Source of the DNA: Candidatus Multivoradales bacterium
Lineage (GTDB): Bacteria; Acidobacteriota; Thermoanaerobaculia; Multivoradales; Multivoraceae
NCBI GenBank assembly: GCA_965223325.1
Contig: CBDCWI010000001.1
Location: forward strand, 800,001-864,000
Length of the DNA stretch: 64,000 nt
Reading direction: 5' to 3'
Made by a program: the position numbers and the translations under genes. Shown piece after piece: positions 19,296 through 57,647 of this stretch (positions are counted from its first letter, which is position 1; each line of letters opens with the position of its first letter). The notes under the pieces were generated by a model. That model saw only the letters and a program-made list of their open reading frames with translations. It had not been told where the DNA came from and ran no database searches.

Positions 19296-19567
19296 GTGAG
19301 AGCCGCAAAAGAACTCCTGGGGCGAGCGCCCTGCACCTCTGACCGCAAACTTCGATGATCCGTCGCGCCCCTTGAATCGAGTCGAAACTCACCCCTTCGG
19401 CGGCTGCTGCTGGTAACCTCGACCACAACGATAAAGAGCCGCCTCGATGCGCCGGGTTGCAGCGTGTAGCGAACCAGCTACCGGTGCCGGGTGAGTGCGT
19501 GCCAGTGCTCGGGCCATCTGGGCCGCGAGACTGGCTGAGGGGCTAAAGCCACTTGGAGGACCAAACC

Positions 19568-19930
19568 ATGGGTGAAATTTTCGACAAAGCAAAAGAGAAG
19601 GTCGGCAACGTTGCAGACAAGGTCGGCGATGCCGCCGAAGCAGCGGTCGACAAAGTCGGTGACGTCGCCGAGGCTGCCATCGACAAGGCTGGTGACATCA
19701 CCGAAGCCGGCGTCGACACCGCCAAGAACGTCGCGGGCAAGGTCGGTGACGCCGCCGAAGGCGCCTGGGACAAAGCAACCGACGTGGCCGACGCCGCAGT
19801 CGACAAGGTAGAGAACATCGCCGAAGCCGCAGTCGACAAGGCCGATGACATCAAAGACGCAGCAGCCGACAAAGTGGCAGCCGCCGCTGAGAAGGTCCAG
19901 GACGTCGCCGAGGACGCCAAGGGCGACTAG
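19568..19930 (+). CDS. LEA/CsbD-like 11-mer repeat hydrophilic protein
   Basis: GGAGG RBS; 11-aa periodic repeats (VGDAAEAAVDK); acidic and Ala-rich. Confidence 0.7.
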   Translation: MGEIFDKAKEKVGNVADKVGDAAEAAVDKVGDVAEAAIDKAGDITEAGVDTAKNVAGKVGDAAEGAWDKATDVADAAVDKVENIAEAAVDKADDIKDAAADKVAAAAEKVQDVAEDAKGD

Positions 19931-21001
19931 GTTGCGATGGTCGTGGTTGCGGCCTGCGGGTCGCGCTCCATCGTTTCTTGAGACCTTGGGGTTGGGGTTG
20001 CGATCGTGGCTTCGTCAGAATGGCGTTACCACGACCATCGCAACCGATCACTCTTGCGGGGCAAGCGGTCCGCCCGGCGGGCCGTCTTCCATGGCGGCCG
20101 CCTTGCAGTTGCGGCATAGGACTGCAAAGTTCCGGCGCGCCCCGCGGATTCGTGCCTCCGATGGAACGATGATCGTGAATGTTGCGGCCTGCGGGTCGCG
20201 CTCCATCGTTTCTTGAGACCTTGGGGTTGGGGTTGCGATCGTGGCTTCGTCAGAATGGCGTTACCACGACCATCGCAACCGATCACATTTGCGGGGCAAG
20301 CGGTCCGCCCGGCGGGCCGTCTTCCATGGCGGCCGCCTTGCAGTTGCGGCATAGGACTGCAAAGTTCCGGCGCGCCCCGCGGATTCGTGCCTCCGATGGA
20401 ACGATGATCGTGAATGCTGCGGCCTGCGGGTCGCGCTCCATCATTTCTTGAGACCTTGGGGTTGGGGTTGCGATCGTGGCTTCGTCAGAATGGCGTTACC
20501 ACGACCATCGCAACCGATCACTCTTGCGGGGCAAGCGGTCCGCCCGGCGGGCCGTCTTCCATGGCGGCCGCCTTGCAGTTGCGGCATAGGACTGCAAAGG
20601 GCCGGCGCGCCCCGCGGATTCGTGCCTCCGATGGAACGATGATCGTGAATGCTGCGGCCTGCGGGTCGCGCTCCATCGTTTCTTGAGACCTTGGGGTTGG
20701 GGTTGCGATCGTGGCTTCGTCAGAATGGCGTTACCACGACCATCGCAACCGATCACATTTGCGGGGCAAGCGGTCCGCCCGGCGGGCCGTCTTCCATGGC
20801 GGCCGCCTTGCAGTTGCGGCATAGGACTGCAAAGTTCCGGCGCGCCCCGCGGATTCGTGCCTCCGATGGAACGATGATCGTGAATGCTGCGGCCTGCGGG
20901 TCGCGCTCCATCGTTTCTTGAGACCTTGGGGTTGGGGTTGCGATCGTGGCTTCGTCAGAATGGCGTTACCACGACCATCGCAACCGATCACTTTTGCCGC
21001 G
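19931..21001 (+). repeat. Tandem array A: 235-bp unit, 4 full copies plus first half of unit 5
   Basis: GCGGCCTGCGGGTCGCGCTCCA recurs at 19949, 20184, 20419, 20654 and 20889 (period 235); copies are nearly identical. Confidence 0.97.
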
Positions 21002-22911
21002 ATCGCGGTAGGAGCGCCGGTTGCCCGGCGCCCCCCGCACAGATCCCAGCGTGCACTGCTAATGCACTGGGCTCCTGCCTCAGGTATTGACGACAAGTCG
21101 CTCATCAGGCCAGGGATGTTGGACTCGGGCTTTGGGTAGGTAGTGGGCCACCAGGGCCCACATCCGTTTCCAGGACGTGCGGTCTTTGTCACTGCGTCGG
21201 CGCAGAGCGCGCATCCAGTGCCGAATGACCTCCTGTCGAAAGGCGTTCAACGCCGCTGAGTTGCCGGGTACGCCGTAGTAGGCATTGAAGCCTCGCACCA
21301 CGGATCCCAGCCAGAGACCTTGCTCTGGTAGCGGCGAGTGTCGGTGTCCCAGAAGGGCCGTACCGACAGCCTTCAGTGTCCTGCGGATTCGGTGGCGGCT
21401 CGTGATGCGCTTCAGCAAGAACCTCCCTCGACTAGACTGCGCACAGCAGTGCGTAAAGCCTAGAAACTCGAAGGTCTCCGGCCGCCCGAGACCTCGCGCG
21501 CGTCGGTTGTAGGCCGCAAAGCGGCCAAACTCCAGCAGGCGCGTCTTCTCGGGTTGGATCTCCAACGAGAAGTCACGGAGTCGCAGGTTCAGTTCCTCGA
21601 GGAATCGTTCTGCCTCCTCCTGCCTCTCAAATCCAACGATGAAGTCATCCGCGTAGCGCACGAAGATCATGTCCCCAAGCGCGTTGCGTTTCCTCCACTG
21701 CTGGACCCAGAGATCGAGCACGTAGTGCAGGTACACGTTCCCGAGGAGAGGCGAAATCGTCGCCCCCTGAGGAGTCCCCCGCGTGCTCGCGTGCCACTTA
21801 CCGTCTTCCATCACTCCGGACCTCAGCCATTTCTGGATGAGGCGAAGGATCCTACGGTCTCCGATACGGTGCTCGAGAAACTTCACCAGCCACTCGTGGT
21901 CCAGGGCATCGAAGAACCCACGAATGTCTGCGTCGAGCACCCAGTTCACCTTCCGCTTTGTGATTCCAACGAATAGCGCATCCAAAGCATCGTGCTGGCT
22001 GCGGCCTCGCCTGAATCCGTATGAGTACCCGAGAAAGTCTTCCTCGTAGATCGCATCCAACACCGAGACGACGGCGCGCTGAAGGATCTTGTCCTCCAAC
22101 GTGGCGATGCCAAGCGGTCGGAACCGCCCATCCGATTTCTCGATGTAGACGCGACGAGTCGCACTCGCCCGGTAGCTCCCACGGTGGACACGAGAGTGCA
22201 GGTCCTCGAGATTGCTCAGCAAAGATTCTGCGTACTCGCTCCATGACACTCCGTCCACTCCTGCCGCTGCGTCTCGGTGCAACACGTCAAATGCGCTCCG
22301 GAGTCGCTCGACCGTGATGTGGTGAAGAAGCGCTGTGAACTTCACTTCCTTGCCCCTGCGGGCGGCTTCTCGTACACGGCCCAGCGCATTGCTCGCACTC
22401 TCCATCCGGCTCTGTGTCCGGGGTGCGTTTTGCTTGCCCGTGTTCCCCTTGGCCAGGCCCCTTCCCTCCACCGCCTCCGCCGCTGGTCTCCCACCGTTGT
22501 TCGACGACTTCGCAGGTACTACGGGCCTGTCTGACTTCCGCCATCCGTGCGTCATCGGCTTACGGCCTCTAGCCTTCCCGATGCGGACCAGATACCCAAC
22601 TGGCCAGATCGCGGATCTCCCGGTTCTCGCGCATGGAGATTCCACACATGCACAGGGTCTACGACCGCGGGGAGTCGCCGCAGAGCTCGCGATAGCGCGC
22701 TACGGAGTCTCGCCTTCCGCTTCGCTTGACAGCGTCGGCACTCCCAAATTCTTATTTCGCGGCTCAATACCCGGCCTGTGTGTGCCCCTGTCAACGCTTC
22801 ACCGCACCCTCGCGGGAGCCGGCGCATGACTCGGGGACCCTCTGGGTCGCTACCCCTTCGAGGGTGGGACTCTCTCATTCCTTTCTCCATGCCGGTTTAT
22901 CCCGGCGTATC
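21002..22911 (-). mobile_element. Group II intron (bacterial IIB-type, class E-like), apparently full length
   Basis: Minus strand: 5' end (G)ATACGCCGGGATAAACCGGC; domain V GAGCCCAGTGCATTAGCAGTGCACGCTGGGATC; domain VI hairpin with bulged A, ending ...CTACCGCGAT. Removing it restores an intact 235-bp unit. The 5' boundary is 22910 or 22911; the class assignment is from memory. Confidence 0.92.
21080..22555 (-). CDS. ltrA: Group II intron reverse transcriptase/maturase (no HNH endonuclease domain)
   Basis: AAGVDG, RPLGI, SYGFRRGR, DADIRGFFD, GTPQGATISPLL, YADD, FEFLGF, domain X (RGFNAYY); stop immediately before domain V. Confidence 0.95.
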   Translation of the reverse strand: MTHGWRKSDRPVVPAKSSNNGGRPAAEAVEGRGLAKGNTGKQNAPRTQSRMESASNALGRVREAARRGKEVKFTALLHHITVERLRSAFDVLHRDAAAGVDGVSWSEYAESLLSNLEDLHSRVHRGSYRASATRRVYIEKSDGRFRPLGIATLEDKILQRAVVSVLDAIYEEDFLGYSYGFRRGRSQHDALDALFVGITKRKVNWVLDADIRGFFDALDHEWLVKFLEHRIGDRRILRLIQKWLRSGVMEDGKWHASTRGTPQGATISPLLGNVYLHYVLDLWVQQWRKRNALGDMIFVRYADDFIVGFERQEEAERFLEELNLRLRDFSLEIQPEKTRLLEFGRFAAYNRRARGLGRPETFEFLGFTHCCAQSSRGRFLLKRITSRHRIRRTLKAVGTALLGHRHSPLPEQGLWLGSVVRGFNAYYGVPGNSAALNAFRQEVIRHWMRALRRRSDKDRTSWKRMWALVAHYLPKARVQHPWPDERLVVNT

Positions 22912-23066
22912 CAAGCGGTCCGCCCGGCGGGCCGTCTTCCATGGCGGCCGCCTTGCAGTTGCGGCATAGGACTGCAAAGTTCCGGCGCGCCCCGCGGATT
23001 CGTGCCTCCGATGGAACGATGATCGTGAATGGTGCGGCCTGCGGGTCGCGCTTCAACATTTGGTAG
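22912..23066 (+). repeat. Second half of array A unit 5 plus a partial sixth unit
   Basis: CAAGCGGTCCGCCCGGCGGGCCGTCTTCC... resumes exactly where the unit was interrupted at 21001. Confidence 0.95.
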
Positions 23067-23250
23067 CGTTCACGGTTGGCACCCTACCGAAGCCAGGTCG
23101 AAACCCCTCAACCCGACGTCAGTACCAAACCCGAGAGTGGCAACCCAGAGGCCAATCGATAGACGGCTTCAGAACTCCACTCCAACACGTCCTACCAAAC
23201 GCTGGAGCGCGACCCGGCCGATCCGCCGATCTGAAGAAGAGCGCTCCATC

Positions 23251-24175
23251 GAGGCACGAATCCGCGGGGCGCGCCGGAACTAGGCAGTCCAAAACCGCAA
23301 CTGCAGGGCGGCCGCCATGGAACACGGCACGCGCTACGGACCGCTTGCCCCGCAAAGGTGACCAGTAGCGATGGTCGTGGTAACGACCCGACGCCGAAGC
23401 CACATCGCAACCCCAACTCCAACGTCCTACCAAACGTTGAAGCGCGACCCACAAGCCGCTACCACGATCATCGCTACATCGGAGGCACGAATCCGCGGGG
23501 CGCGACGGAACTAGGCAGTCCAAAACCGCAACTGCAGGGCGGCCGCCATGGAACACGGCACGCGCTACGAACCGCTTGCCCCGCAAAGGTGACCAGTAGC
23601 GATGGTCGTGGTAACGACCCGACGCCGAAGCCACATCGCAACCCCAACTCCAACGTCCTACCAAACGTTGAAGCGCGACCCACAAGCCGCTACCACGGTC
23701 ATCGCTACATCGGAGGCACGAATCCGCGGGGCGCGACGGAACTAGGCAGTCCAAAACCGCAACTGCAGGGCGGCCGCCATGGAACACGGCACGCGCTACG
23801 GACCGCTTGCCCCGCAAAGGTGACCAGTAGCGATGGTCGTGGTAACGACCCGACGCCGAAGCCACATCGCAACCCCAACTCCAACGTCCTACCAAACGTT
23901 GAAGCGCGACCCACAGGCCGCTACCATGGTCATCGCTACATCGGAGGCACGAATCCGCGGGGCGCGACGGAACTAGGCAGTCCAAAACCGCAACTGCAGG
24001 GCGGCCGCCATGGAACACGGCACGCGCTACGGACCGCTTGCCCCGCAAAGGTGACCAGTAGCGATGGTCGTGGTAACGACCCGACGCCGAAGCCACATCG
24101 CAACCCCAACTCCAACGTCCTACCAAACGTTGAAGCGCGACCCACAGGCCGCAACAACCACGACCATCGCTACAC
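23251..24175 (-). repeat. Tandem array B: four 231-bp units, an inverted and diverged homolog of array A
   Basis: GAGGCACGAATCCGCGGGGCGCG at 23251, 23482, 23713 and 23944; it is the reverse complement of array A's CGCGCCCCGCGGATTCGTGCCTC. Confidence 0.97.
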
Positions 24176-25591
24176 CGGCCAGTCAGGGTGCCAGGGCTTG
24201 CTGCGCTCGAAAGCCATCGATGCCTGCAGCACCAGATCCTCGCGATGCCGTGGCCCGACGATCTGCAAACCAACCGGCAGACCCACATCCGAGAGTCCTG
24301 CCCGCACCGAGGCCGCCGGGTGCCACGAGAGGTTGAACGGGATCGTGAACACCGCGACTCCGGCTGGAGGTTGCACGCGACCCTCGGTCTCCTTCGGAAA
24401 CGGTCCGCCGGCGGGCGGCGGATCGTACGGCACCGTTGGCGTGAGCAAGAGATCGAAGCGCTCGAAGACCTCGGCTGTCCATTCGACGACTCGAGCGCGC
24501 GCGCGGGCAGCGGCACCCCAGCGCTCGGGCGTCATATCCCAGGCGGTCTTCAGACCGCGGGCAAACGCCCGGGTAATGTCGTCGGGCCGCTCTTCGAGCG
24601 CCTCGTGAAGCTGCGCGGCGATCTCGAAGTTGCCCAGCGATCCCCAGGCCTCGCCCAGCGCGGGCGGACCGCCTTCGATTCTTTTGACGTCGTGACCAAG
24701 AGCCTCGAAGGCACCAACCGCCTCTTCGACGACCCGCGCCACGTCACTCTGCACTACGCCCACGCCGAGGTCGGGCGCGAAGGCGATGTGCAACCGGCGG
24801 TCGAACGGTTGGCGGACCAGGTCGAGGTAAGAAAACTCGGGGTGTGGCAGTGAGGCAGGATCACCGAGCGACGTCCCCACAACCTGGTCGAGCACCAGCG
24901 CCGCATCTTCCACCGTGCGGGTCAACGGGCCGTAGACCGCAGTCGCCCCGTAGTCCCAGGCGGAAAGTGGATCACGCGGCACGCGACCGTACGACGGCTT
25001 GAGGCCGTAGGCGCCGGTGAAGCTCGCCGGAATGCGAATGGAGCCGCCGCCGTCGCTTGCGGTCACCAGGGGAATGACTCCGCCGGCGAGAACCGCTGCC
25101 GAGCCACCCGAAGAACCACCGGGGGTGCGCTCCGGGTCCCAGGGAGAAGACGTCGTTCCGAACGGCAGGTTCTTGCTGATGGCCGTGAAGCCGAACTCAG
25201 GCGTATTGGTCTTCGCCACCACGATCGCGCCCGCCGCTTTCAGGCGCGCCACCTGCGTCGAGTCGCGCTCGGCCACCTTGCCCTCGAAGAGTTTCGAGCC
25301 CATCGAAGTCGGCATCTCCCGAACATCCTCGAGATCCTTGACCCCGAGCGGGATACCCTCGAGCGCACCACCCTCACCGCGGGCAATGCGCTCCTCGCTG
25401 CGACGAGCATCGAGCATGCACAGCTCCGGATCGCGGCCGACCGTCACGGCGTTCAAGGTGCCCCGGGTCGCCTCGATGCGCGCCAGCACCACTTCCATGA
25501 GCTCGACCGGCGACAGGTCCTTGCGATGGATCCGCTGGGTCAGCTCAACCAGGCTCAGTGTAAAGACTTCGTGCACAGCGCTCCCTCCCAT
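24170..25591 (-). CDS. Amidase signature family protein
   Basis: GVKDL, KTNTPEFG, PGGSSGGS, SDGGGSIRIPAS (Ser-cisSer-Lys triad). Alternative start GTG 25576. Confidence 0.93.
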   Translation of the reverse strand: MGGSAVHEVFTLSLVELTQRIHRKDLSPVELMEVVLARIEATRGTLNAVTVGRDPELCMLDARRSEERIARGEGGALEGIPLGVKDLEDVREMPTSMGSKLFEGKVAERDSTQVARLKAAGAIVVAKTNTPEFGFTAISKNLPFGTTSSPWDPERTPGGSSGGSAAVLAGGVIPLVTASDGGGSIRIPASFTGAYGLKPSYGRVPRDPLSAWDYGATAVYGPLTRTVEDAALVLDQVVGTSLGDPASLPHPEFSYLDLVRQPFDRRLHIAFAPDLGVGVVQSDVARVVEEAVGAFEALGHDVKRIEGGPPALGEAWGSLGNFEIAAQLHEALEERPDDITRAFARGLKTAWDMTPERWGAAARARARVVEWTAEVFERFDLLLTPTVPYDPPPAGGPFPKETEGRVQPPAGVAVFTIPFNLSWHPAASVRAGLSDVGLPVGLQIVGPRHREDLVLQASMAFERSKPWHPDWPV

Positions 25592-57000: not shown

Positions 57001-57100
57001 CCGCGTATCGTTTGTCGCCTGCGATGGCAGTACTAGTTCGGCCGTCGAGGGCACCCTGGACCGTCGCCCATGCGCCCGCCCGCACTCTCGCGCTACAAAC

Positions 57101-57647
57101 ATCGTCAGCACGACAGGTGGGGACGCGGCATCTGGACGGACGGGGATCTCGCTCAGGGCGGGGGGTTGGGTGGTGGCGTGTCGGTTGGGAGAGAGCTGGG
57201 CTGTCTACCGCTGGCGAGGTCACTGAGAGAGCTACGACCATCGTCAGCACAGGAGGGGGGGCGCCGGCATCTGGACGGACGGGGATCTCGCTCAGGGCGG
57301 GGGGTTGGGTGGTGGCGTGTCGGTTGGGAGAGAGCTGGGCTGTCTACCGCTGGCGAGGTCACTGAGAGAGCTACGACCATCGTCAGCACAGGAGGGGGGG
57401 CACCGGCCTCTGGACGGACGGGGATCTCGCTCAGGGCGGGGGTTGGGTGGTGGCGTCTCGGTTGGGAGAGAGCTGGGCTGTTCGCCGCTGGCGAGGTCAC
57501 TGAGAGAGCTACGACCATCGTCAGCACAGGAGGGGGGCGCCGGCATCTGGACGGACGGGGATCTCGCTCAGGGCGGGGGTTGGGTGGTGGCGTCTCGGTT
57601 GGGAGAGAGCTGGGCTGTTCGCCGCTGGCGAGGTCACTGAGAGAGCT
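57101..57647 (+). repeat. G-rich tandem array, four units of 138-139 bp
   Basis: ATCGTCAGCA at 57101, 57240, 57379 and 57517. Confidence 0.95.

Follow-up and report, generated by a model that had tools for sequence, protein, structure and literature searches.

Our analysis identified a family of gene-end hairpin repeats in the genome of a Candidatus Multivoradales bacterium (GenBank assembly GCA_965223325.1). The family was encountered in a 64,000-nt stretch of contig CBDCWI010000001.1 (positions 800,001 to 864,000; hereafter the window), in which two opposed tandem arrays, array A on the plus strand and array B on the minus strand, face each other between two convergent genes. Each array of the family was found to be co-oriented with the gene that precedes it and to start on the stop codon of that gene, with the bases around the stop codon forming one arm of an inverted repeat that is specific to the locus. 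We favour the reading that the family is a selfish gene-end hairpin repeat acting at the DNA level, similar to repetitive extragenic palindromes (REPs), REP doublets forming hairpins (REPINs) and bacterial interspersed mosaic elements (BIMEs), and that the group II intron found in array A is its passenger. We would give this reading a probability of about 0.6.

A repeat family composed of a hairpin and a conserved tail

Three rounds of nhmmer yielded 188 units at 62 loci, with 18 single hits, and 38 of the 68 non-overlapping tandem arrays with a period of at least 100 nt in the genome belong to this family. BLASTN with the unit of array A gave 94 matches in its own genome, which places the repeat far beyond chance, and none in 40 relatives. 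The period of the units is private to each array, and the units inside an array are typically more than 90% alike (84-100% by Tandem Repeats Finder). Their length of 128-326 bp, compared with 20-40 bp for classical REPs, agrees with the original prediction, made from the letters of the window, that the units are far longer than REPs. Across the conserved portion of the unit, none of the reading frames stays open at more than 13 of the 31 loci.

An alignment with one unit per locus showed that the unit consists of two modules, a hairpin of 116-124 nt, which we call M1, and a conserved tail of approximately 125 nt, which we call M2. M1 comprises, in this order, the motif CGTGGT, a loop of approximately 75-80 nt, the motif ACCACG and 11-12 locus-specific bases. 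At the gene-proximal end of the array, pairing is perfect between these locus-specific bases of the right arm and the 11-12 bases that precede the first CGTGGT. The gene-proximal left arm is thus made up of the stop codon, preceded by one or two bases of the codon before it and followed by a spacer of 5-7 nt and CGTGGT. Across 56 loci, an arm matched its own partner at 15.7 of 17 positions on average, compared with 9.6 of 17 between loci. These 56 loci have 55 distinct left arms, and only 6 nt of each arm are conserved. The stem is 18 nt long in 25 of the 46 loci scored, 17 nt in 18, 16 nt in two and 19 nt in one.

In a set of 40 loci, 96.9% of the stem cells pair, and 15 of the 18 pairs vary on both sides. 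Two-sided changes were counted in 206 cells, compared with 55 ± 6.5 after shuffling (none of 500 shuffles reached 206) and with 31-58 in slid controls, and there are hardly any one-sided changes. In helices evolving as RNA, G-U intermediates are usually seen. In the stems of these 40 loci, five G-U cells are found in the outermost pair, one of them scored as one-sided, and a single one in pair 12; the remaining 16 pairs are free of them. The stem is therefore a strand-symmetric Watson-Crick inverted repeat, and its near lack of G-U pairs points to an inverted repeat of DNA.

With regard to M2, the sequence is conserved, but covariation is restricted to the closing stem (GC in 21 loci, CG in 9), and the module folds no better than shuffled sequences (mean z of -0.45 in sense and -0.12 in antisense). 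These observations bear on the idea that each unit is a gene, repeated in tandem, that encodes a new structured non-coding RNA (ncRNA) of about 235 nt, linear or circular, with convergent read-through producing long complementary RNAs. The conservation of M2 over the 62 loci, the covarying closing stem and the regularity of the units speak for such genes. However, the unit length differs between arrays over the range given above, no promoter-like site was found in the arrays where 0.9 would be expected, the repeat has no Rfam match at E≤1, known self-cleaving ribozymes included, and in the collections searched only a single genome contains the family. Given also the low folding score of M2, we regard this reading as improbable. 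The original prediction had proposed a new structured repeat or ncRNA family; a repeat family without a match in the libraries searched is indeed present, whereas the ncRNA part is not supported, given the nearly G-U-free main stem and the M2 z-score of -0.45.

Stop codons and the origin of the arm bases

An open reading frame (ORF) of at least 250 codons ends in the left arm at 32 loci. The stop codon is TAG in 26 of these, TGA in four and TAA in two, while a crude set of 3,660 long ORFs from the genome uses TAG in 36%, TGA in 58% and TAA in 5.5% of cases. The arm starts with CTAG at 19 loci, with GTAG at 12 and with TTAG at two; in the genome as a whole, CTAG occurs at 0.22 of its expectation. 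Host genes include those of IMPDH (guaB), argininosuccinate synthase (argG), RecA, an arginase-family enzyme, RibBA and a class II tRNA synthetase.

These six host genes were compared with their orthologues in five genomes of the same family. In all four genes with conserved C-termini, a stop codon is found at the orthologue position (in 4 of 5 relatives for IMPDH, 3 of 4 for the arginase-family enzyme, 4 of 5 for RibBA and 5 of 5 for the synthetase), and for each of the four genes, one orthologue or more has the same two bases at the end of its final sense codon. The type of stop is mixed among orthologues; in the case of the arginase-family enzyme, all four orthologues end in TGA and the gene carrying the array ends in TAG. 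The C-termini of ArgG and RecA are variable and uninformative on the stop position. The orthologue comparison thus shows that the stop codon included in the arm occupies the place of the native stop of the gene.

The bases that follow the stop codon have another origin. Five unrelated gene ends share the 10-mer TAGCGAGGGG, which corresponds to TAG followed by CGAGGGG and continues with CG(T/C)GGT. Since approximately ten other copies of TAGCGAGGGG are found in the genome without the element, the spacer must be element-borne; by our own estimate, roughly 0.1-0.4 gene ends of this type would be expected by chance. A host-native origin of the 7-nt spacer was rejected because it is shared by these five unrelated gene ends. 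At the same five loci, the two or three bases preceding TAG differ, and each right arm complements its own host; similarly, at a TAA locus the arm pairs with TTA. The comparison of loci therefore shows that the spacer moves with the element and that the outermost bases match each host gene. A direct target duplication, of either CTAG or TA, was rejected. GTAG is paired with CTAC in 12 loci and TAACG with CGTTA in one, so the flanks are inverted copies of each other.

The outer bases of the right arm were either written from the host at insertion or corrected afterwards. A more daring version of the first option, which we put forward only as a tentative and rather doubtful idea, is that at each insertion the element copies the host stop codon and one to three bases of the last codon, in inverted form, into its right arm, after which the perfect stem directs further copies to the junction and the arrays grow from the gene end. 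Such host-copying would amount to a target-site duplication in inverted form, or to a guide that can be rewritten. If true, it would represent a mode of transposition or repair for which no counterpart has been described, and would explain gene-end hairpins with locus-specific arms.

Three loci have nearly the same gene-end bases (CACGAACTAG T(G/T)ATC), namely C2:3706300-3706424, C2:2722065-2722182 and C2:1072511-1072627, and one of them is devoid of M1. This locus may have arisen by a deletion between short direct repeats or may descend from an ancestor without M1.

Build of the arrays and their proposed growth from the gene end

In the 22 arrays that offer three or more scorable units, the stem of the first unit matches on average at 16.8 of 17 positions, compared with 10.3 of 17 for internal units, which is close to the level seen between loci. 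The first-unit stem is better than every internal stem in 21 of these 22 arrays. In five of ten arrays compared, unit 2 is similar to unit 1 from CGTGGT onwards (from CGGTG in one case), and in two more the similarity sets in a few bases later. The arrayed unit therefore opens with CGTGGT and includes neither the stop codon nor the spacer, so that a true left arm is present in the first unit only. It is to this one gene-end left arm that the right arms of all units are complementary. Two arrays, B and one more, depart from this pattern in that the left arms inside them still match at 14-17 of 17 positions. In array A, the arm position which usually reads TAG reads TTG, with CAA in the partner arm, and the TAG of the gene is located just upstream. 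This fits a seeding of array A by a B-like copy.

Arrays A and B in the window

Tandem Repeats Finder located array A at 19948-20997 (period of 235, 4.5 copies, 98% matches) and array B at 23242-24178 (period of 231, 4.0 copies, 97% matches), and a repeat search of the window found four copies in register in each array, which are 99-100% alike. The left arm of array A is found at 19930..19947 on the plus strand; it is 18 nt long, ends in CGTGGT and begins at the last base of the TAG of the upstream gene. It forms a perfect stem with the right arm, which is present in every unit and lies at 20028-20045 in the first. Units 1 to 4 and the 5' part of unit 5 (20888-21001) occupy 19948..21001 on the plus strand, with units of 235 bp that are 98-100% alike. 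Unit 5 is interrupted at 21001|22912 by a 1,910-nt insert carrying a reverse transcriptase gene. Its 3' part occupies 22912..23066 (+), continues into a partial next unit, and contains a 150-nt 3' piece of the fifth unit at 22912-23061 (98%). Array B comprises four 231-bp units, 97-99% alike, at 23242..24156 on the minus strand, and its left arm at 24157..24174 (-) includes the TAG stop codon of an amidase gene (24170-24172).

Divergence is greatest in the distal units; unit 5 of array A is 92% like units 1 to 4. Between the arrays lies a spacer at 23067..23241, formed by the decayed distal ends of both; with the insert removed, approximately 110-175 nt of these degenerate unit ends separate A from B, close to the ~125 bp first given for the spacer. 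The inverted 172-nt arms between the two arrays are 82-84% complementary, and A and B, with a similarity of 82-84%, are each other's closest relatives genome-wide. The arrangement first described, with 235-bp units on one strand facing 231-bp units of the same family on the other, was thus recovered by both repeat searches. The same holds for the filling of the whole gap between the convergent genes, since it extends from the TAG of the left gene (19928-19930) to that of the amidase gene (minus strand), and for the contrast between arms homogeneous inside (97-100%) and diverged from each other (82-84%), from which concerted evolution of each arm had correctly been proposed. As also stated at the outset, there are no unique spacers, no transposase and no credible ORF within the arrays of this region. 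A CRISPR-type build does not apply, whole units being 97-100% identical inside an array.

Tandem repeats, together with 14 copies of an intron, are difficult to assemble, and the quasi-palindrome could in principle be an artefact of mis-joined or inflated repeats. Indeed, no contig from short-read metagenomes bridges an array or the intron junctions. The genome, however, is assembled in two contigs without N, the 38 arrays have a common gene-anchored build yet private sequences, and both A and B meet unique gene ends in frame at the stop codon. The short-read contigs of run X1, which may come from the source sample, provide a weak hint in the same direction, with a k-mer depth of 29-34 for units (about three times that of flanks), 8.6-11 for unique flanks and about 103 for the intron. 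We therefore consider an artefact very improbable.

The group II intron and its reverse transcriptase

Between 18000 and 26500 of the window, the sole match in Rfam 15 at E≤1 was the group II intron model RF02005 (group-II-D1D4-6), at 22655-22873 on the minus strand, with 180.6 bits (gathering score of 49) and an E-value of 1.2e-53. Hairpins resembling D5 and D6 can be recognised by eye, although the Rfam models of D5 and D6 were unmatched at E≤1. The alignment of 14 copies and the rejoining of the exons delimit the intron to 21002..22911 on the minus strand (1,910 nt), antisense to the repeat unit. The ORF at 21080..22645 (-) is a maximal one, whose true start is probably further in; it matches Pfam RVT_1 (E-value of 9.2e-39) and NCBIfam TIGR04416 for group II reverse transcriptases/maturases (342.3 bits, cut-off of 300), and an endonuclease domain was not reported. 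These profile matches identify the resident reverse transcriptase as the maturase of the group II intron.

BLAST revealed 14 full copies of the intron in the genome, 98.5-100% identical, and one fragment. Thirteen of the full copies are inserted at one fixed site in units of the family, in antisense, and one is found elsewhere (C2:2349733-2351633). GCTTG directly precedes the intron in all 14 copies, and rejoining the exons restores the uninterrupted consensus of the unit. A candidate exon-binding site 1 (EBS1), CAAGCG, lies in a hairpin loop at intron positions 184-189 and is complementary to the last six exon bases, CGCUUG, which would act as the intron-binding site 1 (IBS1). All 14 copies start with GAUACG (22906-22911, minus strand, in the window), and the 3' end reads GCGAU.

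Group II introns that home into repeats or hairpins include RmInt1, which targets ISRm2011-2, and class C introns, which insert behind terminators or attC sites. The present intron resembles them in its lack of a detectable endonuclease domain, in its many near-identical copies and in its use, via EBS1-IBS1, of one fixed target in a multicopy and harmless element. It differs from them in targeting a tandem gene-end repeat and not an insertion sequence or a terminator, and in its GAUACG 5' end instead of the usual GUGYG.

The 14 near-identical copies, of which 13 are at a fixed site of the repeat, make the intron a recent passenger and not the maker of the arrays. As arrays at different loci are only about 70-78% alike, they are older than the burst of the intron. 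Whether the reverse transcriptase is a passenger or helps to generate the tandem copies had been left open, and the first of these options is the one that the data bear out. The second would require that this reverse transcriptase, or another, produces the arrays by repeated reverse transcription of a unit RNA followed by integration. Rolling-circle reverse transcription does yield tandem cDNA in defence reverse transcriptases, and the present enzyme is encoded inside an array. Nevertheless, it is a standard group II intron maturase scoring above the curated cut-off, its intron is antisense to the unit and occupies only 13 of the 62 loci, the intron-free arrays have the same build, and the intron copies are nearly identical while the arrays differ by 22-30% between loci. 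We therefore regard this origin of the arrays as extremely improbable.

Some further features of the insertion site were noted. The four bases next to the 3' end of the intron are CGCG on the intron strand in unit 5, compared with CCCC in units 1 to 4 (20994-21001 vs 20054-20061), and a purine is found at position +2 in all 14 copies. Some variants of M2 contain an extra C5/G5 hairpin of approximately 25 nt at or beside the position targeted by the intron, as in C2:3795008-3795277, C2:4113946-4114215 and C2:4366966-4367240, and two intron copies adjoin such inserts. In metagenome runs X5 to X13, from nine other studies, 21-48% of the query words were present; in X5, X7 and X8, the contigs are mainly located over the intron, with thinly covered flanks. 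The intron or the organism may occur in other samples.

Proposed mechanism and alternative readings

The descriptive results given above are solid. According to the mechanistic reading that we favour, the hairpin element would be handled as single-stranded or cruciform DNA by a putative enzyme acting in trans, and would land directly behind stop codons, mostly TAG. New units would then be added locally, beside the anchoring arm, which would give each locus its own version of the unit, nearly uniform within the array. In the window, array B, or a B-like copy, would have seeded array A across the gap in inverted orientation, and the intron would have homed later, in antisense, into a diverged distal unit through pairing of EBS1-IBS1 with the CGCUUG of M2.

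Several observations weigh against this reading. No polymorphism between filled and empty insertion sites was seen, the nearest genome being only about 70% identical at the DNA level, and mobility is therefore something that we infer. No enzyme could be linked to the family by adjacency or shared ends among the 29 matches to tyrosine (Y1) transposases, the flanks of part of these genes having been inspected. The local addition of units is indistinguishable from unequal crossing-over, and the arms are private to each locus, unlike the conserved arms of classical REPs and REPINs. In unit 5 of array A, two bases beside the intron differ from those of units 1 to 4 and break the closing stem of M2; a target requirement or co-conversion could account for this change. 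Finally, conserved G-U pairs are found in M2 and in the inner helix of M1 on the sense (gene) strand only, and at all 40 loci the sense strand of M1 folds more stably than the antisense strand. Given these two features, a role as RNA, or of the sense strand, is possible for the inner parts of the unit.

The same two features could also be taken to mean that the arrays are functional RNA elements of the 3' untranslated region (3'-UTR), co-transcribed with the upstream gene and with the stop-codon hairpin and tail acting in mRNA stabilisation, translation termination or ribosome rescue, the extra units being spare right arms or decoys. The position of the arrays is in line with this: they are co-oriented with the gene and start on its stop codon, which leaves no room for a terminator, and the arrays contain no terminator-like site themselves. 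Moreover, the hosts include housekeeping genes such as those of IMPDH, RecA, ArgG and RibBA. In PMC3733652, REPs near stop codons are discussed as sequences of post-transcriptional control. On the other hand, the main stem is almost free of G-U in the 40 loci, unlike compensatory RNA helices. M2, whose covariation does not go beyond the closing stem, is no more stable than its shuffles, and it was found in none of the 56 other genomes of the family even though the host genes are conserved. We therefore judge a 3'-UTR function of the whole array to be unlikely.

If the DNA-level reading is correct, the family would illustrate how widely a gene-end palindromic repeat can spread in a single genome, with 62 loci, more than half of the long-period arrays, and the ends of recA, guaB, argG and ribBA among its sites. 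The inclusion of the stop codon and of last-codon bases in a perfect locus-specific inverted repeat, next to an inherited spacer, would not be predicted by the REP, MITE (miniature inverted-repeat transposable element) or IS200 models and would hint at a templated step. The intron would then provide a clean natural example of nested parasitism, having settled in another repeat that offers it safe antisense sites in many copies. With regard to annotation, arrays of this type should not be labelled as ncRNA genes or CRISPR-like loci.

Candidate mobilising enzymes

The genome has 29 matches to the HUH family Y1_Tnp (PF01797), 25 of them above the cut-off. The corresponding proteins are 171-388 residues long, mostly 301-347, and their best NCBIfam match is the REP-associated tyrosine transposase (RAYT), below its cut-off. 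The five types whose copies were mapped are multi-copy elements of approximately 1.3-1.5 kb. The one type whose ends were read has its own G-rich terminal inverted repeats, and no Y1 element carries M1 or M2. The best RAYT-like gene precedes yet another, different repeat. A search for an autonomous element sharing the arms of the family gave nothing within 5 kb of any arm, and the genome yielded no insertion sequence with such arms. The Y1 transposases are thus not supported as the mobiliser among those inspected, and the suggested co-occurrence of the arrays with a RAYT was not seen for them.

The Y1 type with inverted G-rich ends (GTCGGGGGGACTTTCCC ... GGGAAAGTCCCCCCGAC) is found at C1:968716-972675, C1:1242409-1243765 and C1:1917230-1918603. 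The second of these copies is located approximately 60 nt beyond an array of the family, and the G-rich end motif also forms a small tandem array at C2:1745184-1745588. Tyrosine transposases associated with terminal inverted repeats have been described in Acidobacteria by Di Nocera et al. 2013 (PMC3733652), and the Y1 elements with G-rich ends resemble them. Two regions, C1:2125000-2144090 and C2:4455000-4488000, are dense in multi-copy elements of approximately 1.3-1.5 kb, each encoding one Y1-like protein of approximately 300-350 residues. One Y1 cluster reaches the end of contig 1, and such repeats may explain why the assembly has two contigs.

Comparison with known repeat systems

As described by Di Nocera et al. 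2013 (PMC3733652), REP termini tagged with GTAG often supply the TAG stop of flanking ORFs, and REP clusters can be reiterated in tandem together with flanking DNA. The present family resembles the REPs and BIMEs of that description in being a non-coding palindromic repeat at gene ends, between convergent or co-directional genes, in having (G/C)TAG at the outer end of the stem, where it supplies the TAG stop, and in its tandem reiteration with adjacent DNA, in a genome rich in Y1 tyrosine-transposase genes. In contrast to the REPs described there, which are 20-40 bp long and have a family-wide consensus, the outer 11-12 nt of the stem are private here. A loop of 75-80 nt and a conserved tail of 125 nt are present, the whole unit of 130-330 nt is arrayed, and the complement of the stop codon lies inside the element. 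Another difference is that no cognate RAYT was found beside the repeats, in the part of the 29 Y1 flanks that were inspected.

REPINs, according to Bertels and Rainey 2011 (PMC3116915, PMC3337134), are hairpins of approximately 100-120 nt composed of two inverted arms and a spacer, and are presumed to be mobile, non-autonomous and handled as DNA. The hairpin of the present family is similar in its length (116-124 nt) and its two-armed build, and would share the other properties under the reading that we favour. The arms of REPINs, however, are REPs that are conserved across the population, whereas those found here are locus-private. REPINs are also dispersed singly, while the present units form head-to-tail arrays with a left arm in the first unit only.

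IS200/IS605-type elements, which transpose as single strands (PMC6006769), share further properties with the family: the element lies immediately 3' of a short flank on one strand, this flank is complementary to an internal segment, which resembles a guide-target logic, and there is a subterminal hairpin without direct target duplication. Nevertheless, the complementarity here involves 11-12 nt and 6 nt in one continuous stem rather than 3-4 nt, the unit has no transposase gene, and the outermost bases of the internal segment change with the host gene, which would not be expected of a fixed guide.

A MITE derived from a DDE transposon of the IS5 or IS630 type was rejected, given that the arms are not shared by the copies and that the flanks are inverted instead of direct. 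The literature search, whose coverage excluded subscription journals, returned work on REPs, REPINs and RAYTs but none on tandem stop-codon-anchored arrays with locus-specific arms, or on an acidobacterial family of this kind.

Distribution beyond this genome

In the search of the 56 other family genomes mentioned above, the covariance model of M2 was applied to 54 candidates per genome with strict filters. A 25-nt motif of the unit matched once among species-representative genomes, in a betaproteobacterium, and three times in JGI metagenome contigs; as none of these four matches fits the covariance model at E≤1, they were treated as chance.

The M1 model, in contrast, recovered hairpins of the same build, 46-86 nt in length, in 7 of the 24 same-family genomes searched and in none of the 15 from other families of the order, with a limited number of candidates scored per genome. 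Among the 17 hairpins of relatives inspected, at least seven sit on the TAG or TGA of ORFs of 147-501 codons, with a right arm that fits that stop, and most of the 17 then run into other conserved tails. Two hairpins with the same spacer were found in another genus, on TAG and TGA, and their right arms contain CTA and TCA, respectively. Since M1-type hairpins occur in relatives joined to other tails, the hairpin is the older module and is shared, and the M2 tail and the large loop are local.

Within the present genome as well, other arrays consist of an M1-type stop-codon hairpin joined to conserved tails unrelated to M2 (C2:90912-91687, C2:1640895-1641514, C1:1218265-1218568 and C1:1222505-1222910). 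The M1-type hairpin looks like a module that combines with several tails.

Neighbouring genes and a further array

The gene upstream of array A (19553..19930, plus strand, TAG at 19928-19930) was delimited from the ORF list and encodes a small protein of 33-nt (11-residue) repeats. These repeats extend over 19607-19912, and the product may be a LEA-like (late embryogenesis abundant) protein; in Pfam, it gave sub-threshold Apolipoprotein/YtxH-like matches only. The gene upstream of array B (24170..25591, minus strand) encodes an amidase (Pfam Amidase, E-value of 5.2e-95), which is 65% identical to an orthologue of the same genus; this orthologue ends one residue later, in TGA. Another tandem array, outside the family, is found at 57092-57647 of the window (139 bp x 4, 95% matches).

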